DNA of 64,000 nt from Oscillospiraceae bacterium (GCA_017828975.1 JAGAJN010000038.1:18543-82542), one strand, 5' to 3'; shown: positions 10,436 through 62,864, counted from the first letter of the stretch. Notes: generated from the letters alone by a model not told the origin. Program-made: numbers and translations.

Positions 10436-11839
10436 ATGGTTTTTTCAAGTTTAGTCTTTCTGTTTTACTTTCTTCCCGTTGTAATGATACTGTATTTTTT
10501 CTCGCCGACTAAGGTGAGAAATGTTATTATTCTGATTTCGGGAATAATCTTTTACGCCTGGGGAGAGCCGTTCTATATTCTGATAATGCTGCTGTCTACC
10601 GCTATTGACTATACGGCAGGACGTATGCTCGACAAATTCGATGGCAATGAAAAGCTTCGCAGGCTGTTTCTGATAATCTCCGTATGTATGAACGTGGGAC
10701 TTCTCAGTGTTTTCAAATACGGCAGCTTTATTATCACCAATATCAACGGGCTGCTGGGAACGAATATTTTTGACCCGAAGCTGCCTTTGCCCATCGGAAT
10801 TTCCTTTTACACCTTCCAGTCAATGTCCTACACCATTGACCTGTATTTGCGGAATATAAAGGTACAGAAGAATTTTTTCAGCTTTGCGGCGTATGTTACG
10901 CTGTTCCCGCAGATAGTTGCAGGTCCTATTGTCCGTTATGAGGACGTTGCCAAGGAGATAGACGACCGCACGGTGAATATCGGCAAAGTCAGTCAGGGCA
11001 TAGGCACATTCCTGAAAGGTCTCGGAAAAAAGGTCATTCTTGCAAACAATATCGGACTTGTATGGTCTGAGGTCAAAGCTATGGATTATTCGCAGCTGCC
11101 TGTGCTTACTGCATGGATAGGAATTCTTGCATTTGCATTTCAGATATATTTCGATTTTTCGGGATATTCCGATATGGCTGTGGGTCTGGGAAAGATGCTT
11201 GGCTTCAATTTTCCGAAGAACTTCGATCACCCGTACATTTCCAAAAGCGTTTCGGAATTCTGGAGAAGGTGGCACATCACTCTCGGTTCATGGTTCCGTT
11301 CATATGTGTATATCCCCCTTGGCGGAAATCGCTGCGGAACGTTGAAAACTCTGCGAAATCTGCTGATAACGTGGGCGCTGACGGGCTTATGGCACGGTGC
11401 TGACTGGAACTTTATCATCTGGGGACTGTATTTCGGAATTCTGATAATAATCGAGCGTATCGGGTTCGGAAAGGTGCTGGAGAAGCTGCCATCGCCCATT
11501 AGTATGCTGTACACCTTTTTGATAGTTGTGATAGGCTGGGTTTTCTTTGATATTGAGGGATTTATGCCTGCTGTACGCTATCTGGGGGCAATGTTCGGCG
11601 CAAGCGGTATTGGCTTTGACAGTCATTCGCTTTATCTGCTCATTTCCAATGCGGCGATATTTGCCATATGTATTTTCGGTTCAACGGATCTGTTCGATTT
11701 TTACAGGGACAAGCTCAGGACGAAAAAGCCCGAAGCTGCGAAGGCTGTCACACCTGTTCTGCAGTTGGCAGTCCTTGTGCTTTGCACGGCGTATCTTACC
11801 GATGCAAGCTACAATCCGTTTCTTTACTTTAAATTCTAG
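10436..11839 (+). CDS. MBOAT family O-acyltransferase (AlgI/DltB-like)
   Basis: 467-aa polytopic protein with the RRWHITLGSWFRSYVYIPLGG motif carrying the conserved MBOAT His. Confidence 0.9.
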   Translation: MVFSSLVFLFYFLPVVMILYFFSPTKVRNVIILISGIIFYAWGEPFYILIMLLSTAIDYTAGRMLDKFDGNEKLRRLFLIISVCMNVGLLSVFKYGSFIITNINGLLGTNIFDPKLPLPIGISFYTFQSMSYTIDLYLRNIKVQKNFFSFAAYVTLFPQIVAGPIVRYEDVAKEIDDRTVNIGKVSQGIGTFLKGLGKKVILANNIGLVWSEVKAMDYSQLPVLTAWIGILAFAFQIYFDFSGYSDMAVGLGKMLGFNFPKNFDHPYISKSVSEFWRRWHITLGSWFRSYVYIPLGGNRCGTLKTLRNLLITWALTGLWHGADWNFIIWGLYFGILIIIERIGFGKVLEKLPSPISMLYTFLIVVIGWVFFDIEGFMPAVRYLGAMFGASGIGFDSHSLYLLISNAAIFAICIFGSTDLFDFYRDKLRTKKPEAAKAVTPVLQLAVLVLCTAYLTDASYNPFLYFKF

Positions 11840-11849
11840 GAGGTAGCGT

Positions 11850-13007
11850 ATGAAAGATAATAAAAAGAAACGTCCCCTTGACGTATATTCCATAGTTACC
11901 TCTGTACTGTTTTTCGGATTTATCGTTGTTTTTGCGCTGCTGACGATTTTCCTTCCCAAAGAGAAAAAATCTGAGCTGGAAAACAGAAATCTTGCATCAT
12001 TTCCCAAGGCAAATATTGATGACATCAAGAGTACGGAGTTTATGACAGACATTGAAACCTATATCTCCGACCATTTTGCCGCAAGAGTGCCGTTTCTGAA
12101 GCTTAAAGGCTTTTCCGAAAGACTTCTGGGAAGAAGCGAGCGCAACGATGTTTTCATCACCGAGAATATGCTTATGGAAAAGGTACCCGAGCCCGATTAT
12201 ACGTCAATTGACAAGTCTGTTGCTGCAATAAATAAGTTTGACGAGGGGATAGATGCGCAGGTATTTATGATGCTTGTTCCCACAGCGGCGGCGATATATC
12301 CCGACAAGCTGCCGAGCTATGCACCCTCTGCGGACCAGAAGCAGCTTATTGACTATGTTTACGGAAATCTCAGCAGCAGTATTATTCCCATAGATGCGTA
12401 TTCCGCTATGCAGAACAGTTCGTCGGAATATATCTATTATCGTACAGACCACCACTGGACAAGCCTTGGCGCATACTGTGCATATAATGCGGCGGGCAAA
12501 AAAATGGGCTATTCTCCGCTTCCGAGGGACAGCTTCGACATTCAGCACGCAAGCAGCGATTTCCTGGGAACGCTTTACTCAAAGACCTTGTACGACGGCT
12601 GCGAACCTGATGTTATCGACTACTGGTTCGGCGAAAACGGCGAAAATATCCTCTCTATGGAGGTCAACACGGGTATGGAGGTCAACACCTACAACAGCCT
12701 TTATATGCGTGAGTTTCTGTCTGTCAAGGACAAATATGCTTCATTTACGGGAACAAATCAGCCGCTTATCAAGATAAAGACAGGCTGCACAGACGGTCCT
12801 CGGCTGCTGGTCATCAAGGACTCCTATGCGCACTCCTTTGTGCCGTTTCTTGCAAACAATTACTCGGAGATAACGATGATAGATATGAGGTACATTCAGA
12901 CTTCCTATAAAAGCATTGTGAACCCCGAGGATTTTGACCAGGTGCTTATTCTTTACAATGTTTCCGGATTTATTACCGATGCGAATATTCCTAAGCTGAA
13001 ATATTAA
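11850..13007 (+). CDS. DHHW family protein (AlgJ/AlgX-like extracytoplasmic O-acyl transfer partner)
   Basis: N-terminal TM anchor and the literal DHHW motif (YYRTDHHWTSLGAY). It starts 10 nt after the MBOAT gene. Confidence 0.85.
   Translation: MKDNKKKRPLDVYSIVTSVLFFGFIVVFALLTIFLPKEKKSELENRNLASFPKANIDDIKSTEFMTDIETYISDHFAARVPFLKLKGFSERLLGRSERNDVFITENMLMEKVPEPDYTSIDKSVAAINKFDEGIDAQVFMMLVPTAAAIYPDKLPSYAPSADQKQLIDYVYGNLSSSIIPIDAYSAMQNSSSEYIYYRTDHHWTSLGAYCAYNAAGKKMGYSPLPRDSFDIQHASSDFLGTLYSKTLYDGCEPDVIDYWFGENGENILSMEVNTGMEVNTYNSLYMREFLSVKDKYASFTGTNQPLIKIKTGCTDGPRLLVIKDSYAHSFVPFLANNYSEITMIDMRYIQTSYKSIVNPEDFDQVLILYNVSGFITDANIPKLKY
12657..12692 (+). repeat. in-frame 18-bp tandem duplication inside the DHHW gene
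   Basis: ATGGAGGTCAACAC occurs at 12657-12670 and again at 12675-12688 (period 18 bp). It encodes MEVNTG-MEVNTY. Confidence 0.9.
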
Positions 13008-13020
13008 TTTGAAATTAAAC

Positions 13021-13075
13021 CCGCTCCGATTTACTTTGGAATATTGTTTCCAATGAAAAATCGGGGCGGTTTTGC
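13021..13075 (+). terminator. rho-independent terminator after the MBOAT-DHHW pair
   Basis: CCCGCTCCGATTT at 13021-13033 pairs with AAATCGGGGCGG at 13059-13070. There is an inner TTGGAA/TTCCAA stem, and TTTT follows. Confidence 0.6.
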
Positions 13076-13343
13076 GTTTCAATGAATTTATGTCGGAAAA
13101 TGTCGCTGTGTCGCAGCTTTGAGAAGCGGCATAAAATGTATTGTGCGGACGGCGGTGACGGGGATAATACCAAACATCCATTAATCACGGGAATCTCTCG
13201 GCGCCAAAAACCATATACGCAAGTTTTTTACGCCGATTTCTTCTCAGTGATTTAAATGGTGTTTATTATACGCGGAAAGTGGTTAATCAATACCCTCAGA
13301 ATAGCTTCTGCGGCGTTTTCGCTGTCCGATTTTTATAGATACT

Positions 13344-13398
13344 GCCGCAGTTTCGGTAAATTGTTCTTTTCAGGGTGCCGAACTGCGGCATTTTTTTG
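13344..13398 (+). terminator. orphan rho-independent terminator with no annotated gene upstream
   Basis: TGCCGCAGTTTCGG at 13344-13357 pairs with CCGAACTGCGGCA at 13379-13391, followed by TTTTTTT. The loop is 21 nt, which is large. Confidence 0.5.
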
Positions 13399-13427
13399 CA
13401 TAATGTCAAAAATTCTGCTATGTTTAT

Positions 13428-13456
13428 TGACGTTTTCGATAAAATGTATTATAATA
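13428..13456 (+). promoter_or_regulatory. sigma-A promoter for rpe
   Basis: TTGACG at 13428-13433, 17-nt spacer, TATAAT at 13451-13456. Confidence 0.6.
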
Positions 13457-13492
13457 GTAATTGTATAACTGATGAAAAAGAGGGCATTTGCT

Positions 13493-14143
13493 ATGAATAA
13501 AACTATCGTGTCTGCGTCAATACTCAGCGCCGATCTTACGGCACTTGGGGCTGACCTGAAAAAATGCGCCGAAAACGGTGTTGACTGGGTACATTTCGAT
13601 GTTATGGACGGCGTTTTTGTGGATAATATCAGCTACGGTATCCCCGTACTTGAGTCGGTGAATAAGGCAACGGATATGTTCCTTGATGTCCACCTGATGA
13701 TAACCGACCCTTACAAGTATGTGGACGCCTTTGCAAAGGCGGGCGCCGATATGATAACCTTCCATCTTGAAAGCAGCTCGGACGCTGATAAGACCATCGA
13801 GCTTATCCGCAGCAAGGGGCTGAAGGCGGGTATTGCCGTTCGTCCCAAAACACCGGTGGAGGAGCTGGTGCCGTTTTTCGGAAAGGTTGATATGTTCCTT
13901 GTAATGACCGTTGAGCCGGGCTTCGGCGGTCAGGGCTTTATCCCCGAAACGCTGGACAAGGTCGCACAGCTGAGAAAGCTGCTCAGCGAAAAGGGACTTG
14001 ATACCATTATCCAGACAGACGGCGGTATCAACGGAAAAACCGCTCCCGCCGTAAGAGAAGCCGGCTGTGACTGTCTTGTTTCGGGCTCATATCTGTTCAA
14101 GGCTGAAAATATGAGCGATGCTGTAAAGATAATCAGAGGGTGA
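13493..14143 (+). CDS. rpe: ribulose-phosphate 3-epimerase
   Basis: HFDVMDGVFV and MTVEPGFGGQ motifs. Start set at MNKTIVSASIL after AGAGGG. Confidence 0.92.
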   Translation: MNKTIVSASILSADLTALGADLKKCAENGVDWVHFDVMDGVFVDNISYGIPVLESVNKATDMFLDVHLMITDPYKYVDAFAKAGADMITFHLESSSDADKTIELIRSKGLKAGIAVRPKTPVEELVPFFGKVDMFLVMTVEPGFGGQGFIPETLDKVAQLRKLLSEKGLDTIIQTDGGINGKTAPAVREAGCDCLVSGSYLFKAENMSDAVKIIRG

Positions 14144-14678
14144 GCTCCGACAGCTTTTTTACGGCATCTCCCGAGGTTATCAGTTCAAAATGCTCGGCTG
14201 TTTGGGCGGAAAGTGCTTCCGATTTCCCGAGATAGCTGCCGAATTCCCCGAATATCATTCTTGCGGCGGACAGCTTTGATGACGGCAGCCTTGCGGTCAG
14301 CCTGATCTTTCCGCTGCCGCAGTAAAGGGTTGTTTCCGTATCTCCGAAGGCTTTTCTGAATATTGCCGACATTTTTATCAGGTCGGAGATGCTTTCCGTT
14401 TCATAGACGGGACAGGCAGGCTCGCTCAGCGAAATGAAGCCTTCATCAAGGTCGGGGGCGGAGAGGTACATTATACAGCCGCCGTCGGGGGTGTCAAAGG
14501 CTTCGGCGCAGAGCCTTTCCTCGGAAAGGTCTATCCCTGTTTCGGACATTATCCCCGAAATGACAAATTCCACGAAAACAGGGGAGTCAACGTCATAATT
14601 ATCAATACCCAGAAGTTCAAAATCCTGCGGCGGAACTGTTACCTTCAAGGTTACGGAGCTTAGAATTTCGGTTTTCAT
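14133..14678 (-). CDS. MecA-like adaptor protein (tentative)
   Basis: 181 aa. The N-terminus MKTEILSSVTLKVTV...FELLGI and the C-terminus LYCGSGKIRL...FGEFGSYLG...EHFELI resemble the layout of MecA N- and C-domains. This is based on similarity by eye only. Confidence 0.4.
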   Translation of the reverse strand: MKTEILSSVTLKVTVPPQDFELLGIDNYDVDSPVFVEFVISGIMSETGIDLSEERLCAEAFDTPDGGCIMYLSAPDLDEGFISLSEPACPVYETESISDLIKMSAIFRKAFGDTETTLYCGSGKIRLTARLPSSKLSAARMIFGEFGSYLGKSEALSAQTAEHFELITSGDAVKKLSELTL

Positions 14679-14745
14679 CGCTGCGAACTATTCCCGAGGG
14701 GAATTTCTCCTTTCTTTATTCTTGATCACGAAAGGTTTTGCGGAA

Positions 14746-15795
14746 ATGTCAGACAATGTAAGTATCAGAACGGAACGTGAAAATCGTCCCGATTATATAT
14801 TTGTTTTAATAATTCTTGCAGGAATGAGCGTTTATTATTACGGTGCGAGAGCCGCTGTTGTAATAGGCGTTTCTGTGCTGTCCTGCTGTCTGACGGACTT
14901 TGTCTGCTGCAAGCTGAGAGGGCGTTCATCAAGGGCAAGCCTTGCTGACCTTGGAGCAGTAACAACAGGGCTGACGCTTGCGATGATGATGCCTGCTTCC
15001 GTGAGATATACGGTGCTGGCGGGGGCTGCTGTACTGTCCATAGTTATCGGGCGGTACATTTTCACCTTTAAGGACGGCAGGATATTCAACTGCGCCGCTA
15101 TCGGCTTTCTGATGATGGCACTCTCGTTTCCCGATACGGTGCTGACATATCCGAAGCCCTTTGTTTTCCCCGAGCTTGCAAATGATGTGACCGTAAATCT
15201 GGGACAGTCGCTGTCAAAAACGCTTACTCTGACCGATGACCCGTCCCTGACGCCCCTTGACCTGCTGACGGGACAGTATTACGGTCCCATGGGCGCCTGT
15301 CATATGCTGATACTTCTGGTATGTGCGGTTATTCTGGTCGGCAGACGGTCTGTTTCGGGACTGACGCTGTTCAGCGCTTCGGCGGTTCTGCTGACATTTA
15401 CATATTTCTATCACCCTTACGGACGGACACCTATAAGCGGAGTTCTGCTGACATATTGCAGCGGTATGCTGCTTTTCGGTCTGATATTTCTTGTGTGCGA
15501 CAGTTCGGCTGTTCCGAAAACACGGCTTGCAAGGTTTATTTACGGCTTGCTGGCGGGACTGTTCATCGTTGCTTTCAGATTTTACGGAAAGGCTGAAAAT
15601 GCGGTGGTTTACGCTGCTCTGGCTGTGTCGCCCCTCAGCGGGGAGATAGATTGTATGACAGATAATGCTAGAGAGCTGTTTGCCAGACTGTTTAGGTCCA
15701 AGAAGAATATCCCGCAGCAAAATGCCGAAAAGCTGCTGGAGGATATGCCTGTTATGCAGTTTACCATAGACGGAGGCGATGAAAATGAGCGATAA
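14746..15795 (+). CDS. RnfD/NqrB family membrane protein, divergent
   Basis: ADLGAVTTGLTLAMMMPASV...IFNCAAIGFLMMALSFP aligns by eye with RnfD (GDLSAVVTG..LAFNLPPSVP...FNPAL.AR.FL.ISFP). The flavinylation motif region reads TDDPSLTPLD. Confidence 0.75.
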   Translation: MSDNVSIRTERENRPDYIFVLIILAGMSVYYYGARAAVVIGVSVLSCCLTDFVCCKLRGRSSRASLADLGAVTTGLTLAMMMPASVRYTVLAGAAVLSIVIGRYIFTFKDGRIFNCAAIGFLMMALSFPDTVLTYPKPFVFPELANDVTVNLGQSLSKTLTLTDDPSLTPLDLLTGQYYGPMGACHMLILLVCAVILVGRRSVSGLTLFSASAVLLTFTYFYHPYGRTPISGVLLTYCSGMLLFGLIFLVCDSSAVPKTRLARFIYGLLAGLFIVAFRFYGKAENAVVYAALAVSPLSGEIDCMTDNARELFARLFRSKKNIPQQNAEKLLEDMPVMQFTIDGGDENER

Positions 15796-16387
15796 GGACA
15801 GCACCCGATATGAGGGATTGACCACGAAAAATGCGCTGTTTATAAGCGGTCTGGTAATTGCGCCCGCCGTGACCTATGCCACAAGCCTGAGGCACGGATT
15901 TATGCTGGCGGCAATGTTTACGGCTGTGACCTTTCTTTCGCTGCTGATCGCTTCCTTTGTCCCGAGAAATATAGTTTATGCAGTCCGCATAATATTATAT
16001 ACTTTTATTGCGGCGTTGGTGTATGTACCTGTTTATATCATCGCAAATCAGCTGTTTCCGTCCGATCTGGCTCAGATGGGAGTATTTGCGCCGCTGCTCA
16101 TTACCAATTCGTTTATCATATCCAAGTCGGAGGTAAAATTTTTCAGAGAAAAGCGCAGCAAAATGTTTACGGATATTATCTTTTATATCCTCGGATATGA
16201 TGTTGCCGTTATCTTATATTCGGCGGTTAGGGAACTGCTTTCGGGCGGCTCGCTGATGGGTTCTATCTACGGAATACCGACGGTGATGCCCATGTTTTCC
16301 ACAACGGCGGGAGGTCTTATCCTGCTGGGCTTTTGTGCCGCACTGTTCAGAGCCGTAATTCACGCTGCAGGGAGAAAAAGAGAATGA
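15779..16387 (+). CDS. RnfE/NqrD-like membrane protein, divergent
   Basis: ISGLVIAPAVTYAT and APLLITNSFIISKSE correspond to RnfE LLGLCPLLAVT and IPLIVTNCIVVGRAE, with both Cys replaced. An alternative start is the ATG at 15785. Confidence 0.7.
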   Translation: MKMSDKDSTRYEGLTTKNALFISGLVIAPAVTYATSLRHGFMLAAMFTAVTFLSLLIASFVPRNIVYAVRIILYTFIAALVYVPVYIIANQLFPSDLAQMGVFAPLLITNSFIISKSEVKFFREKRSKMFTDIIFYILGYDVAVILYSAVRELLSGGSLMGSIYGIPTVMPMFSTTAGGLILLGFCAALFRAVIHAAGRKRE

Positions 16388-16983
16388 GTATATTTCTGAG
16401 ATTAGTTGAGATAGCTTTTATCTCTATGATTGCCGAAAATGCCGTTTTTACCCGCTCGATAGGTATGAGCACCGCCCTTATGGTCGCAAAAAAACGCAGC
16501 CGTTTGCTGGGCTTCGGCATCTGCATAACATATATGACGACCATAACGGGAATAATAGATTACTTCCTCTTTTACTATCTGCCAAAAGGGGAATATGAGC
16601 CGCTTTATATGCCAATAGTGTTCATTGCCGTGCTCAGTCTTATTTACATTATCACGCTGCTGATGCTTTGGAAATTCAAGTATGATACCTTTGACGGGCT
16701 GAAAAAATATGTCCATATCTCGGCGTTTAACTGTGCCGTTTTCGGGATATTGTTTTTAAGCGTTGACAAATGCACATCTCCCGCAGATTTCGCAGTTTTC
16801 GGACTGTTTTCGGGACTGGGCTTTATGGCGGCGGCTTATATGACGGCAATTGTTTACGACAAGCTGTATTCCGACGAAATGCCTGCCTTTTTCAGGGGAT
16901 TTCCTGCACTTCTGATATATAACGGTATTCTGGCAATGGCTTGCTACGGTCTGACGGGACATCAGCTGACCTATGGCATCTGA
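16384..16983 (+). CDS. RnfA/NqrE-like membrane protein, divergent
   Basis: Its ATGA overlaps the preceding gene. SIGMSTALMVAKK corresponds to RnfA FLGLCPFMGVSKK, AFNCAVFG to TTNCAVLG, and MPAFFRGFPALLIYNGILAMACYGLTG to [27 protein letters not shown]. Confidence 0.7.
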   Translation: MSIFLRLVEIAFISMIAENAVFTRSIGMSTALMVAKKRSRLLGFGICITYMTTITGIIDYFLFYYLPKGEYEPLYMPIVFIAVLSLIYIITLLMLWKFKYDTFDGLKKYVHISAFNCAVFGILFLSVDKCTSPADFAVFGLFSGLGFMAAAYMTAIVYDKLYSDEMPAFFRGFPALLIYNGILAMACYGLTGHQLTYGI

Positions 16984-17015
16984 TAATCTGCAGGAAGGTT
17001 TGAAAGGAAAGATAT

Positions 17016-18245
17016 ATGAACAGAAAAGGCGGAATAAAGGTCTATCGTTCAAATAAGCGGAAGCATTACCGCAAACCCAAAACAAAGGGTCAGAAAATAG
17101 CCTCGTGGATAGCTGTCATTCTGATAATGGCTGTTCTTGTGTTTGTGGGTTACAGTATCTGCGACCCTGTTGTGAATTTCATAAACAGCTGGAAAAACAG
17201 GGACAATCTCACCATAGAGGACATAATTCCCGTTGAATCTCAGCAGTCTGAACCGGCAGAAACGGAGCAATCCTCTGTGTCCGAATCGGAAACAACGACG
17301 GCTGTTACCGAGCCTGTTTCCAATGAAAGCTACTATGCTTTGGAATTCAAGGCAGGGGAGATACTCACTGCAAAAGAACTTGGCAGCGCTGCGCAAAAGG
17401 CTTCCGAACAGGGCTGTACAGCTGCTGTTATTGAGCTTAAAGCGGCGGGAGGTGCGTTCTATTATCAGACCTATTCGGAGATCGCCGCACTCAGCGAAGG
17501 AAGCATAAAGTCCACAATGCCCGCACAGCAGCTTGCAATGACACTGAAAAGCATGGGCATAACTCCTATTGCAAGGATAAATCTGCTGAACGATAACAAC
17601 CGCTACGATTATCCCGACGGAACGAGAATTTGCTCCTACAAATTTGCTTCGGACAATTCAAACTGGCTGGATAACCGTCCCACCAACGGCGGAAAGCCCT
17701 GGCTGTCGCCCTTTGACACGGACACTCAGGAATATATCAGGTTTCTGGCTGACGAGATTTATTCGGCTGGCTTTGAGCTGGTCATCTGTGACGGCGTTAT
17801 TTTCCCGCCGTTCCATAACTCCGACCTTAACTATATCGGTGACATTGTAAAATCCGCTGACAGGTACAAAATACTGATAAATTCGGTGGACATTGTCAAA
17901 AAATCTGCCGATAAAGCGGGCGGGAAAACGGCGCTCAGCGTTTCTGCAAAGGACATCATAAACGGTACGGCAGAGGTTTTCAAGCCCGATGAGCTTACGG
18001 CAGACCTTATCTGTGTGGAATACTATCCGACGGATTTCGGCGGAACTATCGTTGTGGAAAACAGCGAGATAGACCTTTCAACCCTGTCGGAGGCGGAGAA
18101 GGCTGTTACGGTCATGAATGCTGTACGTTTGAAAGCGGGCAGTCTTGGAATTATCCCCGTGCTTCACGGTTCGGAGCCTTCTTCGGAAACGGCTTCGGCT
18201 CTGAAAAATGACGGATTTAAGACGATATTCTTTTCGCAGAGCTGA
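17016..18245 (+). CDS. membrane-anchored hypothetical protein, possibly a glycoside-hydrolase-like TIM barrel (DUF4015-like)
   Basis: Basic N-terminus plus one TM segment, then a Ser/Glu/Thr-rich linker and an about 300-aa domain (GCTAAVIELKAAGGAFYYQT). The family assignment is from memory. Confidence 0.4.
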   Translation: MNRKGGIKVYRSNKRKHYRKPKTKGQKIASWIAVILIMAVLVFVGYSICDPVVNFINSWKNRDNLTIEDIIPVESQQSEPAETEQSSVSESETTTAVTEPVSNESYYALEFKAGEILTAKELGSAAQKASEQGCTAAVIELKAAGGAFYYQTYSEIAALSEGSIKSTMPAQQLAMTLKSMGITPIARINLLNDNNRYDYPDGTRICSYKFASDNSNWLDNRPTNGGKPWLSPFDTDTQEYIRFLADEIYSAGFELVICDGVIFPPFHNSDLNYIGDIVKSADRYKILINSVDIVKKSADKAGGKTALSVSAKDIINGTAEVFKPDELTADLICVEYYPTDFGGTIVVENSEIDLSTLSEAEKAVTVMNAVRLKAGSLGIIPVLHGSEPSSETASALKNDGFKTIFFSQS

Positions 18246-18396
18246 TACCGAATTGTAATTTGATGCTGTTTTTCGGATATTTCGCTTTTGAGCTCTGTTA
18301 TTATGCCGATTTACAGACGTGAATTTTATTTAATCTGCCAAAAATAATTACATTTCGGTTTTAATGCGGATATTTTCACCCAATTATCAGATTTTG

Positions 18397-18405
18397 TGGT
18401 ATAAT
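18397..18405 (+). promoter_or_regulatory. extended -10 element upstream of the PBP gene
   Basis: TGgTATAAT at 18397-18405. No good -35 element at 17-nt spacing. Confidence 0.4.
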
Positions 18406-18488
18406 ATATATCATGTTCGGTTTATTTTGTGATCTCAAGGTGCGGCATTTTGCAGGACGCCTTGAATAATTTCAGGGAGGTTTTTCCT

Positions 18489-20759
18489 ATGAGCAGTGCG
18501 GTCAAGAAGAAAAAAGCAAAGAGAATGCACCCCGTCAAACGTACCTTTATGGTTATCGGTGCAACCTTGCTTTCACTTATACTTATTATAGTTATAACAA
18601 TTTCCATAATTGCGGCGGCTCTGACGGTGTACATCTTTCAGTTTCAGGACCAGGCAAATGACGTTACACTTGACCTGTATTCATTGGAAATGGACTATAC
18701 TACCATTATTTACGCCTACGATAAAAACGGAAATCCCGTTGAGATACAGCAGATAACAAGGGGTGCTGACCGTAAGCCCGTTTCTATCGAGCAGGTTCCG
18801 CAGCACGTTCAGGATGCTTTCGTTTACATCGAGGACGAGCATTTCTATGACCATTCGGGCGTTGACTGGAAGCGTACATTTTCGGCGTTTGTCAATGTAA
18901 TTCTGGACAACATTTTCGGATATGAATTCGGCGGTTCGACCATCACTCAGCAGCTTATCAAAAACGTAACGGGTGATGATGACCAGAACTGGGACAGAAA
19001 GGTTCGTGAGATCTTTCGTGCCCAGAACATCGAGGAGACCTGTACCAAGGCGGACATTCTTCAGGCTTATCTGAACTATATCGGCTTCGGCGGAAACACT
19101 GCGGGTATTCAGGCGGCTGCAAACAAGTATTTCGGCAAGGACGTTTCCGAGCTTACAATTGCGGAAGCGGCGTGTCTTGCGGCGATACCAAAATCCCCGA
19201 ACACCCTCAATCCTTTCAGCAGCTATGTTGACAAGGACGGCTATACCGCTCTTGAAAGGAACGAAAAGCGCCGAATTCTCGTGCTTAATGCTATGCTGGA
19301 AAACGGTGCTATCTCTCAGGATCAGTATGAGGAGGCGTGCAACACAAAGCTTGTGTTCCGTGACCCCGATGCTCCCGTTGATGATGAAAATTCTCTCGTA
19401 AATGAGGGCGTTCAGAGCTATTTCGTGGATATGGTCATCAGAGATGTTACCTATGGTCTTATGGACGAGTACGGCATTGATTTTGATGAAGCGCAATCTC
19501 GTCTTTACAACGGCGGTTATAAGATTTACAGTACCGTTGATATTGAAATGCAGAAGGCTGTTGAGGCTAAGTTTGAGGATTATACCACGTTCTCTGCGGA
19601 GGTCCTTGCAAATCCTCCTCATGCTGCATTTGTGGCTATGGATTATATGGGAAATATCCTTGCTATTGTCGGTGACGTGGGCGAAAAGCCTATTGACAAC
19701 AGCTGGAACTATGCTACACGTGAGCCTCGTCAGCCGGGTTCTTGTATCAAGCCCATCACTTCTTACGGCTATGCTATTGAAAACGACCTTATCCATTGGT
19801 CAACTATTTTCACCGATAAGCCTATTACCATCAAGGACGCAAATGCTCCCGGCGGCGAAAGACAGTGGCCGCAGAACTATTCCAATCGCTGGAGCTACGG
19901 CGGATATTTCACCTTCCAGGCTCTCCAGCGTTCGCTGAATACCATTCCTGCGCAGCTTATCCAAATGGAAGGTCCCACAAACGTTTATAACTTCCTGCAG
20001 TCCAGGTTCCATATTACCACGCTGACACCTTATGACGCCGACCTTGCACCTTTGAGCGTTGGTGCGCTTAACGATGGTATTCTGCTGACTGAGCTGGTAG
20101 GAGCATATCAGGTTTTCGGTAATCTGGGAAAATTCTATGAGCCAACATCATATTCCATGGTCATTGACCCAACGGGAAATGCTATTCTGCAGAACACCTA
20201 CACACCCGTTCAGGCACTTGACAAGGATTCCGCTTATGTAATGAACAAGCTGCTGGAAACTGTCGTTGAAGATCAGGTGGTCGGTACAGGTCGTGCCGCT
20301 AAGCTGCCTACCAAGAAGCTTGTGGGTAAGACAGGTACATCTCAGAACTGGGGAGATATTGCATTCGTTGGCTGTACTCCCGACTATGTCAGCGGCGTTT
20401 GGTATGGTTATGATGACAGAAGTCAGTCTGTTCAGAACACCTATTACAGCTCCGCAAAACTGTGGAAGAATATTTTCGGAGATATTGCCGAGGCGGGACC
20501 TGTTACCAATTTCCCGTCAAACTCTAACGTCAAGGAGCTTTACTATTGCGCAAACACCGGAATGATAGCCAGCGGACTTTGTCCCACAGGTTCAAAGGGT
20601 TACTATAAGCCCTCCAACATTCCTCCTGTCTGCACAAGCTGTGGTGCTAAGCCATCTCAGACAGTTACCACACAGGCACAGACAGAAGCTCAGAACGCTG
20701 CTGCGGCTGCTGCTGCGGAAGGCGGTCAGAACGCAGCTGCACAGCTTGCTCAGGATTAA
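18489..20759 (+). CDS. class A penicillin-binding protein (PBP1A family: transglycosylase plus transpeptidase)
   Basis: GT51 motifs EDEHFYDHSGVD, GGSTITQQL and RKVRE. Transpeptidase motifs SCIKP (SxxK) and KTGT. Start at MSSAVKKKK after AGGGAGG. Ala/Gln-rich tail. Confidence 0.92.
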   Translation: MSSAVKKKKAKRMHPVKRTFMVIGATLLSLILIIVITISIIAAALTVYIFQFQDQANDVTLDLYSLEMDYTTIIYAYDKNGNPVEIQQITRGADRKPVSIEQVPQHVQDAFVYIEDEHFYDHSGVDWKRTFSAFVNVILDNIFGYEFGGSTITQQLIKNVTGDDDQNWDRKVREIFRAQNIEETCTKADILQAYLNYIGFGGNTAGIQAAANKYFGKDVSELTIAEAACLAAIPKSPNTLNPFSSYVDKDGYTALERNEKRRILVLNAMLENGAISQDQYEEACNTKLVFRDPDAPVDDENSLVNEGVQSYFVDMVIRDVTYGLMDEYGIDFDEAQSRLYNGGYKIYSTVDIEMQKAVEAKFEDYTTFSAEVLANPPHAAFVAMDYMGNILAIVGDVGEKPIDNSWNYATREPRQPGSCIKPITSYGYAIENDLIHWSTIFTDKPITIKDANAPGGERQWPQNYSNRWSYGGYFTFQALQRSLNTIPAQLIQMEGPTNVYNFLQSRFHITTLTPYDADLAPLSVGALNDGILLTELVGAYQVFGNLGKFYEPTSYSMVIDPTGNAILQNTYTPVQALDKDSAYVMNKLLETVVEDQVVGTGRAAKLPTKKLVGKTGTSQNWGDIAFVGCTPDYVSGVWYGYDDRSQSVQNTYYSSAKLWKNIFGDIAEAGPVTNFPSNSNVKELYYCANTGMIASGLCPTGSKGYYKPSNIPPVCTSCGAKPSQTVTTQAQTEAQNAAAAAAAEGGQNAAAQLAQD

Positions 20760-25586: not shown

Positions 25587-27422
25587 TTATTCGAGAATAA
25601 GGTCGTTCTCGTCAAATGTGGGATATTCTCCGTTTTCAGAAAATTCAGAGGTCGTAATACCGTTAATATCGGTTATTTCAATTGTCATTGGTGCTGAATT
25701 CATAAACAAAGTATTGACATCATTGCCGCATACGCCGCCTGAATATTGAATTGTCCCGCAATATGCCGAAATATTGTATTTTCCTGCAATAGGGCAATGC
25801 CATACAGCTTCTCCGTTTTTGTCCGTTGCACCGATAACATAGCCGCCCCAAGCACCGGAATATCTTTCGGCAAGATTGCTGCCGTCAAAGCCCTCAGGAC
25901 GGAGTATCACCCAATATCCGAACAGGGGACTGCCGTTTTCGTCCAGCAGACGGATAACGGTTTTTGACCTATCGACGGCGTTCAGCTCGTCGGGAGTAGG
26001 GAGGTCCCACGGCAGATCAAAGCTTATATTCCGAGGGGCGTCTGCATTTATCTCTATGGTAAACTGAATTTCGTTTCGTTTGCTTTCAACGCCGTCTGAA
26101 TTTACCATCATATCCGAGGCGGTCACAAGATATGCTCCCTCGGTAAGGGTGCGGACTGTTGGCTTATCGCCGCAGGTAAGGGCAGCACCGTCCATATATC
26201 CTCCGCGGTCGTTGTCAAAGTCATATCCGAGAACGCCGTTTGCATACTTGATCGCTTTGCAGGTCACACGCAGTCCGTTTACGGGGTCGCCGTTTTTATC
26301 GGAGAATATGAACGAGGCTTGGTATTGACGAGGTTCTTCAGCAGGCTGAGAATTTGGGTCGTATGCAGGAGAGGTGAACTCGCTGTCCTTTGCATCGGCG
26401 GTGTTTTGCAAATTTTCGTACTTCTCGGCATAATAACGTTCATCCTGTGCAACATTGTCCCTATACCGTGTTCCGAGAAATGTGTCGATAAAATCCTCGC
26501 TCATTTCATAATTCCGACAAAATGCCGAAATAACATTGCTTTCGGGAGATATTGGGAACGCCATGACCTCGCCGCCTGCATATTTTGCCACAAGATAATA
26601 GCGCTGCGGCTCTGCTATATGGACGGAAAGATCATCAACCGTGTAATCACGTCCGTACTCGAATTTACCGCCTTCGGAAAGCCCGCCGATAATATCTGTC
26701 AATTCGGTGTCAAGAAGATTTGTATTTTCCTCGACAGCTACGGTACAGTAAGACATACTTTCCCAGTCATCTTCATAGGCGCAGTTGAAGTTCATTACAT
26801 CAAAAGAATAAAGCATATCTCCCGAAGTTCTGAGCATTTCTTCCAGCATATTGCCTTCGCTTTTGACGGGGGAATGGTAGCGGTAGAAATGTATTTCGCC
26901 GTCAGACTCCAGCCCTAGAAGATTGGGATTTTTACTATCCGCAAAATAATGCAGCCCGCTTCCGCCCGGAACTTCATTTCCGAGAATGGGTTTGTCGGAA
27001 TAGCCCGAATAACCGTTGAAAAGTATGGTAAGCAGCTCCTCATCATTGTCGGCTCGCATATATATTTTTTCTCCGACAATTATTTTGAGGGGCACATCAG
27101 TCGCTTCTTCAACTGCCGTTTCGGGTATTGGGATTTCCGCCGAAGCGGTTTCTGCGGAAGAAGTTTCGGTATATACAGCAGCATTTGTCCCTGTTTCGGG
27201 TACGGATTCAATATCCCTGTCGCTGCCGTAACGTACGGAAGTTACCGCTATTACTGCTGTCAGAACGCAAAGGGACACAGCCGCAGCCGCTTGCAATATG
27301 GGACTTCTTCTTTTCGGAGCATCGACGGAAACGGGATTTTCCGCATTTGCAGCAATTCTCCGCTTCATATCCGAATTTGCATTAATGGAGCTGTAAATGC
27401 GGTCCAGATCGTTCTTATTCAT
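25587..27422 (-). CDS. single-pass membrane protein, probable anti-sigma factor with a large extracytoplasmic region
   Basis: Its start overlaps the stop of the ECF sigma gene by 8 nt. It has a short cytoplasmic N-terminus, one TM segment (ILQAAAAVSLCVLTAVIAVTSV) and an about 540-aa external part. Confidence 0.55.
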   Translation of the reverse strand: MNKNDLDRIYSSINANSDMKRRIAANAENPVSVDAPKRRSPILQAAAAVSLCVLTAVIAVTSVRYGSDRDIESVPETGTNAAVYTETSSAETASAEIPIPETAVEEATDVPLKIIVGEKIYMRADNDEELLTILFNGYSGYSDKPILGNEVPGGSGLHYFADSKNPNLLGLESDGEIHFYRYHSPVKSEGNMLEEMLRTSGDMLYSFDVMNFNCAYEDDWESMSYCTVAVEENTNLLDTELTDIIGGLSEGGKFEYGRDYTVDDLSVHIAEPQRYYLVAKYAGGEVMAFPISPESNVISAFCRNYEMSEDFIDTFLGTRYRDNVAQDERYYAEKYENLQNTADAKDSEFTSPAYDPNSQPAEEPRQYQASFIFSDKNGDPVNGLRVTCKAIKYANGVLGYDFDNDRGGYMDGAALTCGDKPTVRTLTEGAYLVTASDMMVNSDGVESKRNEIQFTIEINADAPRNISFDLPWDLPTPDELNAVDRSKTVIRLLDENGSPLFGYWVILRPEGFDGSNLAERYSGAWGGYVIGATDKNGEAVWHCPIAGKYNISAYCGTIQYSGGVCGNDVNTLFMNSAPMTIEITDINGITTSEFSENGEYPTFDENDLILE

Positions 27423-27909
27423 TTTTCAGCCCTCCTTCATTCAGTTCAAGACGCAGCTTTTTTCTTGCACGGTAAATATCGGAGCCTACCGTTTTTGCAT
27501 TTCTGCCCGTAATTTCGGATATTTCCTCCAAAGAATATCCTTCAAAGCAAAATAGATACAAGGCATTTCTCTGATGCTCGGGCAGGCTTCGGATAAGCTC
27601 GGCATATTCAATGCTTTCGAAATCATCGGCAAAGGATATGCAGCCGTAATCAGCAAGCGGCTGGTTTTTGCGGAACCATGCGGAACGTGCCCTGTCATGA
27701 CATAGATTGATAGCAACACGGATAAGCCACGCCTTTTTATGTTCGCAGCTGTCAAAACCCGACGTATTTTTCATCAGCCTTATAAATGTTTCCTGCACAA
27801 TATCCTCAGCATCGTGGCAATTTTTCGTATTCTGAACAGCAATTCGCAGAATGGTATCGGCGTAAGCTTCGACATCGGCTTCAAAGATCGTCTTTTCATC
27901 TGCGGTCAT
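27415..27909 (-). CDS. ECF-type sigma-70 family RNA polymerase sigma factor
   Basis: Region 2 (DAEDIVQETFIRL ... WLIRVAINLCHD) and region 4 (LYLFCFEGYSLEEISEITGRNAKTVGSDIYRARKKL). Start at MTADEK after GGGGTGG. Confidence 0.85.
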   Translation of the reverse strand: MTADEKTIFEADVEAYADTILRIAVQNTKNCHDAEDIVQETFIRLMKNTSGFDSCEHKKAWLIRVAINLCHDRARSAWFRKNQPLADYGCISFADDFESIEYAELIRSLPEHQRNALYLFCFEGYSLEEISEITGRNAKTVGSDIYRARKKLRLELNEGGLKNE

Positions 27910-27995
27910 CTGCACCACCCCTTTTATGTTTCTGTATATAATACGGTTCTCGAATGCTGTTTTTTGCAGCATATAAAAATTTCCCCGACAAAATA

Positions 27996-36855: not shown

Positions 36856-38220
36856 TCAGATTTTTTCGGAAAGTCTGTCGATAAGCTTTCCCAATGATGT
36901 AAAATCGGGGTTTTCGGAACTTTCGCCGTATCTTATGATGTCGTAGGCATCGGCTGTGGGGGAATACTCGGAAAAGTCGTTTTTTACCTGCTCCAGCTGA
37001 CCAATTTCGCCTGTGGTTCGGACGGGGGATATTTCTGTTCCCGTCAGCCTGAAACCGTCAAGCGCTGCTTTGAAGCCTTTTCGGTATTTTTCGGGAGATT
37101 CGGGCATTTTTTTGTAATCCTTCACAAGCCGTTTCCATTCGGAGATCTGTTTTCTTCTCGGCAGCTGCCTGAACGTTTCCGCTTCGTCTTCGGAGAGGAA
37201 TTCCTCGCTGTCGGTAAATCCACATTCCTCGTCGTTATCTTTTTTGGCAAATTTTAAGGAAACATCGGACAGAAGCTTCAGCAGCTTTCGGAAAGCGTTT
37301 TTCATGACCTTGACGGCACTTCCGAAGAATTTTATTATCAGCACTGCAATTATAATGAAGCCGACGATATAAAACAGCGCATTCCAGACTGGGTGGGGAG
37401 TTACCTCGGGGACATCTTCGAGGGGAACGTACTCAGGCAGTTTTGGAAGCTCTTCGAGAGGTTCGGCATCTCCTCCGGTGGTTTTGCTGAGCTGTCTTGC
37501 CAGCTCCATAGAAGCGGCTCCGACAATTTTTATAAGCTTGAACAGGGAGAGAAATATTGCTGAAATGCCGTCCTTGAACAGGAAAAGCAGGGCGGTAATG
37601 CTGGCAATTATCACGATAAGCCTGATGGTATAGGCACGCACCTTCGGCGGGAGATTTTGCTCGCTGTGCCGTCTGCGCTGCATCAGATAGTCAATATTTC
37701 CCTGACTTTTCCCGATAGCAAATATCAGAATTATGATGAAGTAGAAGAAAATCATCAGTTCGGGGCTGTATGGGTGCTCGGTAAGGAACAATATAAGTAT
37801 CACCAGGAGATTTCCAACTGCGGAAAATATTATGCCAAAGCCCTTCAGTATCATGGTATAATGGAAAAAATAGTATCGGCAGCCGAAAACGAACAGCATC
37901 AGACAAAGCGCCGTAAGCAGGACGACCGAGACGATACCTCTTTGCTGATTTGACGAGAAAACAAAGAACGCTCCCACCGCCGAAGCAATTGCAAACAATA
38001 CAAGCAGCAGCCGTCCCACAACGGGCTTTCTGTCCTCTAACAGACTGAATGTCATTCGGATAATATAGCCGAAAAATCCAAATCCTGCGGCAATTCCCAT
38101 ATCGGTCAGCCAGATGAACCCGCCGAGATCGTCAAAGCCGTCTATGAGCATTATCAGCGGAAAAAACAGCAAAAATGACGCCAGACAGGCAAGCAGCTTT
38201 ATGGCATCAAGAAGCTTCAT
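36856..38220 (-). CDS. polytopic membrane protein with a DUF4129-like cytoplasmic tail
   Basis: 454 aa with many TM segments. Its C-terminal part resembles tails found after MoxR-DUF58 pairs. It overlaps the DUF58 gene by 14 nt. Confidence 0.45.
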
Positions 38221-39361
38221 GGTGTTCCGCCTCCTTTTCGGGGATATTCAAGCCGAAGAAATTCCGTCCGACGGAAATTGCGTTGATGTGCGAGGGAATA
38301 TACTCGGGAATTTCGCCTGTGGTCAGGATAGTGACACCCTTTTGGGATTCCGCAAAGCTTACGGTATGTTCGTCTATGTAAGGCGTGATGACGTATATTT
38401 CCGTTCCGGGGGCAGCTTTGCAGGTGCCGTTCAGAAACGCTCCGAAGCTTTCGGCGGCGTCAAATTTGAGTTCCGCAAGAAGTCTTAGGCAGGAGAGAAG
38501 CTGTTCGCCGCCTGTGGCAGTTTCGGAGATGATATTTCCCGAATTTTCCGCGATCTGTCCGTTGGAAAGAAGCGTCATAGGCACTCCGCTTTCAGAACAG
38601 GATCTCAGCAGAGAGGCGGCAACCTTTATACATATTTCAAGAGCCATAACGTCCAGAGGGTCGCCGAAATCTATTTCCGAGGACTGACAATTTAAGATGA
38701 CGGCACAGCTTTTGTTCAGCGTGTAGTCGTTATTGTATATCATCAGTTCATCGGCAGCGGCGGTAGCCTTCCAGCATATTCTTCGGAGATTGTCGCCGTC
38801 AATATACTCGTGGATACCATTATAAAAGAACGGGTCTGAAATTATCTGACGCTTGGTAAAAACATTTCCGCAGATGTAGCTGACGCTGTCCCGTGAAATG
38901 CTGTCGGCAGGCAAGGGGGCGGGCAGGACACGCACTCTTGCATTCAGCTCCACGGGCATAGATGTGTTCATCGTACCGAAAAGGTCGCTGGAAACAAGAA
39001 TGGACTTTTCAATGGTATAAACGCCCCTTTTCAGGCACTTGACCTTCCAGCTTCGGCGTATTTTGTGATAGCTTTTGAGCATAAAGATGCTGGAGATAAA
39101 CCTCGTTTCTCCCGTGACTACCGATTCAAGCTCGCCCGCTTCAAGCCATTTTGACGTGGCAAGCTCGGATTTCAGCCAGCTTACGGGCAGCAGCTTTGCA
39201 TTGCTGATCTCCTCGATAAGTTCTATTTCGTCACCCTCAAAGGCTTCATCAACGCTGAAACAGCATTTATATTCAAGGTTTGAAAAAATTTTTCTGCAGT
39301 AAACAAGGTGCTCAACAGCAAGTACGAGCACAATGATAGCAAGTATTGCAAGAAAATCCAT
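38207..39361 (-). CDS. DUF58 domain protein
   Basis: N-terminal TM segment, the RRICWKATAAADELMIYN motif (DUF58 signature RRIxWKxSAR-like), and a position directly after MoxR. Confidence 0.75.
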   Translation of the reverse strand: MDFLAILAIIVLVLAVEHLVYCRKIFSNLEYKCCFSVDEAFEGDEIELIEEISNAKLLPVSWLKSELATSKWLEAGELESVVTGETRFISSIFMLKSYHKIRRSWKVKCLKRGVYTIEKSILVSSDLFGTMNTSMPVELNARVRVLPAPLPADSISRDSVSYICGNVFTKRQIISDPFFYNGIHEYIDGDNLRRICWKATAAADELMIYNNDYTLNKSCAVILNCQSSEIDFGDPLDVMALEICIKVAASLLRSCSESGVPMTLLSNGQIAENSGNIISETATGGEQLLSCLRLLAELKFDAAESFGAFLNGTCKAAPGTEIYVITPYIDEHTVSFAESQKGVTILTTGEIPEYIPSHINAISVGRNFFGLNIPEKEAEHHEAS

Positions 39362-39381
39362 AGCTTTACCGTCTTCCTGAG

Positions 39382-43071: not shown

Positions 43072-43085
43072 AAGGAAGCTTTACA

Positions 43086-43817: not shown

Positions 43818-43911
43818 ATAACATTAAAATATCTGAATATAGAAAACTGCTTCTGACAATAATTTCAACAGGACAGCTTGACGTTGTCCGTAAAACAAGG
43901 AGCAGTTTTTT

Positions 43912-48306: not shown

Positions 48307-48357
48307 TTTTTGATTTGCCGTCATAGAATTAAATATATTTATTATGGCGGTGATGAA

Positions 48358-50345: not shown

Positions 50346-50468
50346 TAATTATAGTTGTATTTTTCTGCCGATTTTTCGGAATTAGCATTAGTTCTTTCAT
50401 TTTACGACAATCATTTTGTGCGGAGCTTTGGCAGAAATTATTACAGTATTTCGATTGGAGGAAAATCT

Positions 50469-51851: not shown

Positions 51852-51906
51852 GAACCGTCTAACACGCATTTCCATATAAAAATTCTTTTGAATGGTGGTA
51901 CGAATT

Positions 51907-52275: not shown

Positions 52276-52293
52276 TTGAAAGGCGGTTTAGAA

Positions 52294-58359: not shown

Positions 58360-58374
58360 ACGGAGGTTTTACAA

Positions 58375-58839: not shown

Positions 58840-58852
58840 AGGAGCGGTACCG

Positions 58853-59803: not shown

Positions 59804-59823
59804 TTTTAAAAGGAGTGCTGCTA

Positions 59824-61811: not shown

Positions 61812-61829
61812 GTATATGGAGGTGAAATA

Positions 61830-62858: not shown

Positions 62859-62864
62859 AGTGAG

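Follow-up and report, generated by a model that had tools for sequence, protein, structure and literature searches.

An Rnf-like membrane cassette of gut Clostridia predicted to lack the ligands for electron transfer and linked to a DUF4015 protein

Introduction

The closest described relatives of the genes treated here belong to Rnf (RnfCDGEAB; Na+/H+ ferredoxin:NAD+ oxidoreductase; Protein Data Bank (PDB) entries 7zc6, 9eri and 8ahx) and to Na+-NQR (NqrABCDEF; PDB 7xk3). We analyzed a stretch of 64,000 nucleotides (nt) from an Oscillospiraceae bacterium (GCA_017828975.1, JAGAJN010000038.1:18543-82542), which is called the window below and to which all coordinates without a locus label refer. 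At 14746-16983 it encodes three membrane proteins that we name D', E' and A', the RnfD-, RnfE- and RnfA-like products; in Na+-NQR their homologues are NqrB, NqrD and NqrE. The membrane part of the described complexes carries several cofactors. In RnfD of Clostridium tetanomorphum, flavin mononucleotide (FMN) is phosphoester-linked to Thr153 (Vitt 2022, PMC9588780), while the intramembrane [2Fe-2S] cluster of Acetobacterium woodii is ligated by C25 and C113 of RnfA together with C25 and C108 of RnfE (Kumar 2025, PMC11889175). In the same organism riboflavin is bound by N123 and D249 of RnfD, and Na+ enters via the R67-E115 pair of RnfE, which is required for the Na+-dependent function; mutation of these ligand and Na+-entry residues impairs or abolishes function (PMC11889175). 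RnfG and RnfB each contribute a single transmembrane helix to a bundle that also includes helices of RnfA and RnfE (PMC9588780), and a 2025 review has termed the membrane cofactors of Rnf and Nqr 'strictly conserved' (PMC12174285).

A reduced derivative of these systems has been described before, namely a two-subunit Nqr/Rnf-like complex in which a flavinylated extracytosolic subunit of the NqrC/RnfG type is combined with a fusion of an NqrB-like domain and the NAD-binding domain PF00175; it contains no RnfA/E homologues and was proposed to be an outward electron carrier (Huang, Meheust, Barquera and Light 2024, PMC11334425). The trio resembles it in being reduced and in having an NqrB/RnfD-like subunit without the flavinylated Thr. 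In contrast, the trio does have RnfA/E homologues, and it has no RnfG-like subunit, NAD-binding domain or flavinylation motif: D' carries PF03116 alone, and also its long-tailed variants are without a second Pfam domain.

The present study indicates that D', E' and A' represent a large family under purifying selection, in which the ligands for electron transfer are predicted to be gone and which is encoded next to a DUF4015 protein with a glycosidase-like fold. Collectively, the cassette appears to be a so far undescribed machine without redox function that was derived from an old pump. We found no literature description of the cassette or its function in searches on Rnf paralogues, DUF4015 and incomplete Rnf systems, whose coverage is incomplete such that an earlier mention is possible, and there is no NCBIfam model for the trio subfamily. 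The two-subunit complex was the one 'RnfD-like' system that these searches brought up. Hence, the statement in a preliminary description of this DNA that no function has been described for a trio without RnfC, RnfG and RnfB still stands.

Results and Discussion

Identity of the trio and its neighbours

The genes for D', E' and A' are co-directional and overlap by 17 nt (D'/E') and 4 nt (E'/A'). The preliminary description, made from the sequence alone, had noted such an overlapping trio flanked by a divergent mecA-like gene and a membrane-anchored DUF4015-like gene; gene calls with PF03116 and PF02508 reproduced the trio, and PF05389, PF13200 and an N-terminal transmembrane helix bore out the flanks. 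The genes of the locus are as follows, with lengths in amino acids (aa):

13472..14143, + strand: rpe, ribulose-phosphate 3-epimerase (PF00834, E=2e-72, 243 bits), upstream member of the cassette
14133..14678, - strand: MecA-like gene, C-terminal domain only (PF05389, 23.4 bits, cutoff 22.5), divergent from D'
14746..15795, + strand: D', RnfD/NqrB-like polytopic membrane protein, 349 aa (PF03116, NQR2_RnfD_RnfE, E=1e-43)
15779..16387, + strand: E', RnfE/NqrD-like six-helix membrane protein, 202 aa (PF02508, Rnf-Nqr, E=2e-24)
16384..16983, + strand: A', RnfA/NqrE-like six-helix membrane protein, 199 aa (PF02508, Rnf-Nqr, E=2e-25)
17016..18245, + strand: DUF4015 protein, 409 aa (PF13200, 40.8 bits, cutoff 27), starting 32 nt 3' of A'
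18429-20759: class A penicillin-binding protein (PBP1A), next gene after DUF4015

Homology to the membrane subunits of Rnf is clear, with Pfam scores of 150 (D'), 87 (E') and 90 bits (A') against cutoffs of 24-28. The best-ranking NCBIfam models are rnfD for D', rnfE/nqrD for E' and rnfA/nqrE for A'. The curated Rnf cutoffs are missed widely: D' reaches 90.9 bits with TIGR01946 (rnfD, cutoff 207), E' 47.4 bits with TIGR01948 (cutoff 213) and A' 62.0 bits with TIGR01943 (cutoff 229), i.e. approximately a quarter to half of what is demanded. The Nqr models are also below cutoff (nqrB 38.7 vs 350, nqrD 51.5 vs 245, nqrE 57.8 vs 248). By sequence, the nearest PDB chains are RnfD, RnfE and RnfA of C. 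tetanomorphum, A. woodii and Azotobacter vinelandii as well as NqrD and NqrE of Vibrio cholerae, with E-values of only 1e-9 to 1e-13.

The partner subunits were searched for throughout the window. Neither the ferredoxin motif CxxCxxCxxxCP nor the flavinylation motif Dxx[ST]GA[ST] occurs in a six-frame scan of the whole 64 kb, and tblastn found no second D/E/A copy in it. Pfam scans of 49 of the larger open reading frames (ORFs) of the window returned no RnfC, RnfG, RnfB or ApbE and no NqrA-, NqrC- or NqrF-type domain; the five 3'-terminal ORFs of 58375-58839 and 59815-63614 lay outside these scans. The earlier view of a trio lacking RnfC, RnfG and RnfB therefore holds for the window, where motif and Pfam scans agree and where the operon of the trio, which had been named beforehand as the place where such partners could turn up, has none, and for most relatives, while it fails for two distant loci that harbour a degenerate RnfC-like gene and are discussed below.

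Loss of cofactor ligands

Ligand sites were read from alignments of the window proteins and the recovered relatives with canonical Rnf chains (n=35 for D' and A', n=33 for E'). The residues found are:

RnfD Thr153: Leu in the window; Leu in 29/35 relatives
RnfD Arg130 (FMN contact): Phe in the window; mostly Phe or Tyr in relatives
RnfD Glu185 (FMN contact): Ala in the window; Thr, Ala, Cys or Ser in relatives
RnfE C25: Ala in the window; Ala in 31/33 relatives, with a conserved Pro always next to it
RnfE C108: Ser in the window; Ser, Glu, Pro, Gln or Ala in relatives, Cys in none
RnfA C25: Ser in the window; Ser, Thr, Asn or Asp in relatives, Cys in 1/35
RnfA C113: Cys in the window; Cys in 19/35 relatives, otherwise Ser, Thr or Ala

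Only one of the four [2Fe-2S] cysteines is thus kept in the window (C113 of A'), and according to the alignment the former Fe-S cavity of E'/A' is lined by Ser, Thr, Asn and Ala, sometimes Glu. Proper alignment had been named beforehand as the test on which the claimed degeneration of the sites could fail, and its outcome was loss and not conservation. At the level of single sites, most of the preliminary readings were reproduced. The 'VNC' of RnfE aligns to 'TNS' in E' as had been proposed (TNC to TNS), the 'GICP' of RnfA aligns to 'GMST' in A' (proposed as LGLCP to IGMST), and the claimed retention of NCAV in A' is mirrored by the alignment of 'TNCA' with 'FNCA', where the Cys is kept. Translation also agrees with the statement that E' has a single Cys close to its C-terminus. 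Two readings were right on the loss and wrong on the place. The first E' site, given as GLCP changed to GLVI, has indeed lost its Cys (to Ala), in another register, however, because 'GMCP' of RnfE aligns to 'VIAP'. Similarly, the flavinylation site of D' had been located at TDDPSLT, whereas Thr153 corresponds to the Leu in '...ANDVTVN-L...', about 20 residues upstream.

Judging from these alignments, the ligand losses characterise the whole large and deeply diverged family and not one genome. As far as sequence can tell, D'E'A' cannot hold the intramembrane [2Fe-2S] cluster and is without the flavinylated Thr. Since the cluster and the RnfD-bound FMN are two obligatory stations and neither has its ligands, the Rnf electron path is not possible for the trio, and the missing ligands predict that it has no ferredoxin:NAD+ oxidoreductase activity.

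It is nevertheless conceivable, albeit very unlikely, that the trio still works in redox chemistry, either with RnfC, RnfG and RnfB supplied in trans from a canonical operon elsewhere or with riboflavin or cofactors that are not ligated by Cys. Such an activity would be in line with the presence of Asn123 and Asp249 in the window D' and with the loci L025 and L032, at which an RnfC-like gene with two 4Fe-4S motifs is present, a Thr aligns with Thr153 and two Cys remain of the four Fe-S ligands. It is opposed by the interruption of the path from RnfB to RnfC at both obligatory stations, given that ligand mutants of A. woodii are inactive (PMC11889175). Moreover, the ligands were lost long ago, with the losses being stable throughout the family, and no RnfG, RnfB or FMN_bind partner was found at any cassette locus. 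The RnfC-like proteins themselves also argue against it, because they are without the GxGGAGFP-type NADH/FMN motif and their Complex1_51K and SLBB matches remain below cutoff.

The two RnfC-like genes are situated between rpe/mecA and D' (L025:1704-3032, 442 aa; L032:6800-8020, 406 aa), and the two 4Fe-4S motifs in each product are of the CxxCxxCxxxCP type. What we take to be the glycine-rich NADH/FMN motif of RnfC is degenerate in both. The two loci fit a stepwise descent, in which a complete Rnf lost RnfG and RnfB and gained DUF4015 before RnfC and the remaining ligands were lost; an ancestral, pre-redox form fits them less well. L025 and L032 are at the same time the only loci without the R67-E115 pair. 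This anticorrelation between retained ligands and the lost pair is a lead only, read from two alignment rows (n=2) with long insertions in one of the E' proteins.

Conservation and selection of the cassette

An exhaustive HMMER search with a D' profile over 1.84 billion representative proteins yielded 539 D' clusters (50% identity) at E<=1e-30; none of the top 150 falls below 206 bits. With this profile, canonical RnfD of Clostridia reaches only 95-100 bits and every cassette D' at least 205 bits. From the number of clusters and this gap in profile scores it follows that the D' family is large and clearly separate from Rnf proper. A further homologue search with an alignment of 47 D' sequences added no members.

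The neighbourhood of such trios was surveyed in 37 loci, of which 29 came from a scan of the GTDB species representatives, two were reached via close homologues, four via distant representatives and two via an abundant DUF4015 orthologue. All 29 GTDB loci belong to metagenome-assembled genomes (MAGs) of Clostridia, including Ruminococcus, Oscillospiraceae, Huintestinicola, Gemmiger and Ca. Fimenecus. The survey revealed a fixed cassette, and it added rpe as a conserved member that the preliminary description did not contain: the order rpe-(mecA-like)-D'-E'-A'-DUF4015 recurs at the loci examined, with rpe directly 5' of D', or of the mecA-like gene plus D', in 37/37 loci. In one of them (L033) rpe overlaps the start of D' by 4 nt. 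By tblastn, about 13 of 31 loci have the mecA-like gene at its cassette position, the distant L025 among them. Of the 32 loci that reach far enough downstream, 31 have the DUF4015 gene next after A'. This adjacency backs the connection to the downstream exported protein that had been suggested for the single locus. The outer flanks vary entirely (alaS-comEC-holA, proBA, obg-L27-L21, ftsH-tilS, pth-mfd, chemotaxis genes). No Fer4 motif was found in 33 of the 35 cassette loci scanned.

The family is conserved down to about 25% identity with a fixed gene order. Comparison with relatives at 96% and 87% identity gave ratios of nonsynonymous to synonymous substitution rates (dN/dS) of 0.06-0.10 for D', E', A' and DUF4015 (0.075-0.087 for D'), the same as for rpe and PBP1. 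The cassette genes are under purifying selection and functional. Together with the family-wide ligand loss, this supports the earlier proposal of a redox-incompetent, paralogous membrane core that has been repurposed. A public RNA-seq run contains contigs on D', across the D'/E' and E'/A' junctions and on DUF4015, at a depth similar to that of the neighbouring PBP gene; this evidence for expression is weak, since DNA may be present in the contigs of a metatranscriptome. The clostridial family belongs mainly to Oscillospirales. In gut Clostridia of the Oscillospirales type the cassette is a near-universal and syntenic trait that extends to very abundant species; a single DUF4015 orthologue has index entries in 464 blocks of a contig collection.

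These data also bear on the simplest explanation for the loss of cofactor ligands and partner subunits, i.e. that the trio is the remnant of a decaying Rnf operon without present function. We regard it as extremely improbable in view of the intact reading frames, the dN/dS values equal to those of rpe and PBP1, the 539 clusters with fixed gene order, the transcripts (with the restriction given above) and the invariant or nearly invariant R67, E115 and N112. A pseudogene reading was rejected on the dN/dS values.

Some members of the family differ in length. E' of L026-L029 (e.g. L026:11085-12131) ends in about 150 aa that are rich in Lys and Glu and match no Pfam domain, and E' of L024 and L025 carries an N-terminal extension of 100-130 aa. 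Several D' variants (P0237, P0194, P0185 and others) comprise 500-800 aa with C-terminal extensions; fusion proteins were considered as explanation for these and rejected, since the tails have no Pfam domain.

Comparison with Rnf and Na+-NQR

Compared with Rnf, the trio shares the D..E-A gene order and the homology of the subunits, the Arg67-Glu115 pair of RnfE in E', the invariant Asn112 of RnfA in A', and the riboflavin ligands in the window D'. It differs in that RnfG and RnfB are lacking in the family and RnfC in 33/35 loci scanned, that Thr153 is replaced by Leu and the [2Fe-2S] cysteines are missing at three to four of their four positions, that curated models score it far too low, and that it has a DUF4015 glycosidase-like partner and an invariant rpe neighbour. 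Regarding Na+-NQR, its subunit NqrA is an example of an RnfC-type protein that has been retained although it carries no cofactors; the trio differs from this complex by the lack of NqrA, NqrC and NqrF, of the covalent FMN site and of the Fe-S ligands. Since curated scores, covalent FMN site, Fe-S ligands and partner subunits all fail, the trio does not have the defining features of Rnf or Nqr and should not be filed as either complex.

The DUF4015 protein

The protein encoded downstream of A' belongs to DUF4015 according to its Pfam gathering score and to a predicted (beta/alpha)8 glycosidase-like fold. The AlphaFold2 model (mean predicted local distance difference test, pLDDT, 75) consists of a basic cytoplasmic N-tail, one transmembrane helix, a disordered Ser/Glu/Thr-rich linker of low confidence and the (beta/alpha)8 domain. 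From the positive-inside rule the globular domain should be extracytoplasmic, which is the same topology as in RnfG. When this domain was compared with the PDB using Foldseek, the top matches were PgaB GH153, Cthe_0052, TM1410/GH191, Cwp19 of C. difficile, GH20 hexosaminidases, PelA and Ega3, with probability 1.0 and template modelling (TM) scores of 0.48-0.67. These structural relatives are enzymes that act on envelope or matrix polymers with hexosamine units (poly-N-acetylglucosamine, peptidoglycan, Pel, N-acetylgalactosamine). The only solved sequence relative is the uncharacterised Cthe_0052 fragment 4s1a (profile E=1e-7), to which the motifs D193, W217-x-D219, W229-x-x-P232 and E247 align.

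Among 18 diverse orthologues the transmembrane helix is the best-conserved segment (mean column identity 0.52; barrel 0.44, linker 0.27), and it contains the motif ...ALVFVGYS..P. Such conservation is unusual for a simple anchor and therefore points to a specific contact within the membrane. The DUF4015- and GHL-type glycosidases (Cthe_0052 4s1a, PgaB GH153 6au1, Cwp19 5oq3, PelA GH166, GH191) have in common with the cassette protein, a member of PF13200, the barrel fold and the motifs that align to 4s1a. No attachment to a membrane complex of the Rnf type is known for any of them, and the cassette DUF4015 has a highly conserved N-tail and transmembrane helix. The sole paper on DUF4015 that we found reports its fusion to a YkyA domain, in parallel to sporulation or cell-wall polysaccharide deacetylases (PMC12700454).

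A possible cation-handling envelope complex

The reading to which we lean, and which we hold tentatively, is that the trio represents a membrane core of Rnf type that has lost electron transfer and was kept for a non-redox, probably cation-handling job together with DUF4015 on the cell envelope. The Arg67-Glu115 pair of RnfE is present in the window E' and among relatives (Arg67 in 32/33, Glu115 in 31/33), Asn112 of RnfA is kept in A' of 35/35, and the half-helix motifs of E' and A' retain small residues. Because the pair, Asn112 and the half-helix motifs are kept, E'/A' may still bind and move Na+ or H+ without an electron drive.

In such a scheme, the products of D', E', A' and DUF4015 would form one complex with D'E'A' as membrane body, in which the E'/A' heterodimer would keep the discontinuous-helix, alternating-access architecture and the Arg67-Glu115 pair. 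DUF4015 would dock by its conserved transmembrane helix in the helix bundle where the anchors of RnfG and RnfB sit, and would take the topological place of RnfG, with the N-terminus inside and the globular domain outside. The ion-linked cycle might then gate, position or energise the extracytoplasmic glycosidase-like domain, which could act on an envelope polymer with hexosamine units, be it peptidoglycan or a secondary wall glycan. The E'/A' cycle might instead carry the substrate or product of the DUF4015 domain across the membrane. We infer both the four-protein complex and its function from sequence features.

Taken furthest, the scheme describes an ion-gradient-driven envelope machine, in which a cofactor-free RnfA/E-type dimer would turn Na+/H+ flux into motion of a glycosidase subunit for wall cutting or remodelling, with this subunit at the site that the mobile RnfG switch occupies in Rnf; in this specific form it is unlikely. 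FtsEX-CwlO/PcsB/EnvC and the Tol, Ton and Mot stators provide an analogy without homology, in that the cycle of a polytopic module drives an outward-facing envelope enzyme, and they differ in that the drive proposed here would be the ion gradient via an RnfA/E-type alternating-access dimer. If the machine were real, the ion-translocating and conformational core of Rnf/Nqr would work without electron transfer, and RnfA/E instead of RnfD would be the ion path.

Several observations weigh against a cation-handling envelope role. Neither this nor any other envelope model accounts for the constant neighbour rpe, whose link to the cassette is operonic and deserves serious attention. A Gemmiger MAG (L024, 9902-13798) has rpe-D'-E'-A' without DUF4015 and with an unrelated protein of 426 aa after A'. 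Asn123 and Asp249, which bind riboflavin in RnfD, are found in the window D' and in 24/35 and 27/35 relatives, respectively, hence a non-covalent flavin and some redox role of D' are possible. RnfA residues close to the Na+ site of A. woodii are changed in A' (Pro107 to His, also in 24/30 relatives, Thr110 to Ala and Thr111 to Phe), therefore ion handling may be altered or lost. Furthermore, the Na+-conducting subunit of Rnf/Nqr is disputed between RnfA/E and RnfD/NqrB (PMC11889175, PMC12174285). Finally, the TM-scores of the DUF4015 domain are just 0.48-0.67, and its glycosidase-like role is putative.

Another interpretation appears rather unlikely: D'E'A' could be an ion-coupled solute transporter that imports a sugar or oligosaccharide released by DUF4015, or exports a precursor, with the product entering pentose/hexose metabolism via Rpe. 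The cassette would then be a small operon for uptake and catabolism. It combines an outward glycosidase-like protein with a membrane module and a sugar-phosphate epimerase in one operon, and in L033 rpe overlaps D'. The half-helix core of RnfA/E is reminiscent of H+/Na+-solute symporters (review PMC12174285), and the former Fe-S cavity now offers polar and small side chains. However, no kinase, isomerase, regulator or binding protein was found at any cassette locus, and rpe resembles a housekeeping copy (243 bits with PF00834) with no second rpe among the scanned ORFs of the window. Moreover, no Rnf/Nqr-family protein is known as sugar carrier, and the conserved transmembrane helix of DUF4015 suggests a fixed subunit and not a free exo-enzyme.

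The envelope context might also be narrower, in that the cassette would be a channel/hydrolase module specific for sporulation or division, acting in engulfment, in cortex synthesis or remodelling, or in septation. The organism is a spore-former by its spoIIGA-sigE-sigG genes (42238-44682), DUF4015 occurs fused to YkyA as in sporulation deacetylases (PMC12700454), folds like those of Cwp19 and PgaB belong to enzymes that target wall polymers, and in the lineage of the window PBP1A lies directly downstream and an MBOAT-DHHW pair upstream. We nonetheless consider this restriction improbable. Gut metatranscriptome contigs at about the level of PBP1 suggest vegetative expression, the neighbours at other loci are general housekeeping genes, no evidence for promoters of sigma-E/F/G/K was obtained, and the Gemmiger MAG retains D'E'A'. 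Gemmiger and its relatives are not known to form spores. Functions beyond the readings discussed here keep a share of the probability.

Implications

A large, selected family without the cofactors contradicts their strict conservation in Rnf/Nqr and indicates a second, non-redox use of the scaffold. It also offers a natural experiment on the dispute whether Na+ moves through RnfA/E or RnfD/NqrB, since the redox drive is gone while Arg67-Glu115 is nearly invariant. In addition, annotation pipelines label the family members 'RnfABCDGE type electron transport complex subunit D', E or A. Because these labels rest on genes unable to do Rnf chemistry, systematic mis-annotation as Rnf is probable, and metabolic reconstructions may wrongly credit abundant gut Clostridia with an Rnf complex and its energy conservation. 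For the uncharacterised DUF4015 family, the cassette provides a cellular context that can be tested.

Other features of the cassette and the window

Within 12500-19000 no Rfam RNA element was found, and a scan for promoters and terminators gave matches at background level. The non-coding gap of 460 nt 5' of rpe (13008-13471) holds a near-consensus match to a sigma-70-type promoter (13427-13455, 11/12), and a perfect TTGACA-16-TATAAT is located at 14470-14497 (- strand) within the mecA-like coding sequence, on its own strand, which could be an internal promoter or a chance match. The mecA-like gene is separated from the D' start by 67 nt; the match of its product to PF05389, the family of the ClpC adaptor MecA, covers only model residues 136-221 of 221, and there is no NCBIfam match.

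An MBOAT and DHHW/AlgX-like pair of the glycan O-acyltransferase type is found just 5' of rpe (10436-13007), a position that it keeps in closer relatives (L001-L010, L015, L036) and not in distant ones. At L033 (L033:111-2459) a rubrerythrin and a ZIP-family metal transporter are encoded directly 5' of rpe and the cassette. This ZIP gene, a conserved His in A' and Glu in some E' proteins raised the idea of a divalent-metal transporter serving the metalloenzyme Rpe, which we keep at the level of an idea since it leaves DUF4015 unaccounted for.

In Firmicutes, a conserved cluster has the order priA-def-fmt-rsmB-rlmN-prpC-prkC-rsgA-rpe, and in Bacillus rpe closes it. The window contains priA and fmt (confirmed by Pfam) and three unscanned ORFs with the sizes of rsmB, rlmN and prpC in the Firmicute order (55888-63614), whereas rpe heads the Rnf-like cassette 40 kb away from this cluster. 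A second rpe copy is possible, because the window ends before the priA-fmt cluster does.

The spoIIGA-sigE-sigG group was recognised by PF03419 and two sigma-70-family genes and, judged by gene content, the organism is a spore-forming Clostridium-type bacterium. It is followed by genes for an M50 peptidase (45155-45811) and a D-Ala-D-Ala carboxypeptidase (48310-49500). At 50355-53691 a carboxyltransferase (PF01039) and an OadA/PYC-like carboxylase subunit (PF00682 plus PF02436) are separated by a gap of 420 nt that could hold small subunits; these genes may encode a Na+-translocating decarboxylase and thereby bear on Na+ cycling. An ECF-type sigma factor (27415-27972, in the region 25587-27972) overlaps an ORF of 611 aa without Pfam match, possibly an anti-sigma factor. 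Finally, the region 36856-40326 encodes a MoxR-type AAA ATPase (39382-40326), followed by ORFs of 384 and 454 aa on the same strand that have no Pfam match at E<=1e-5.

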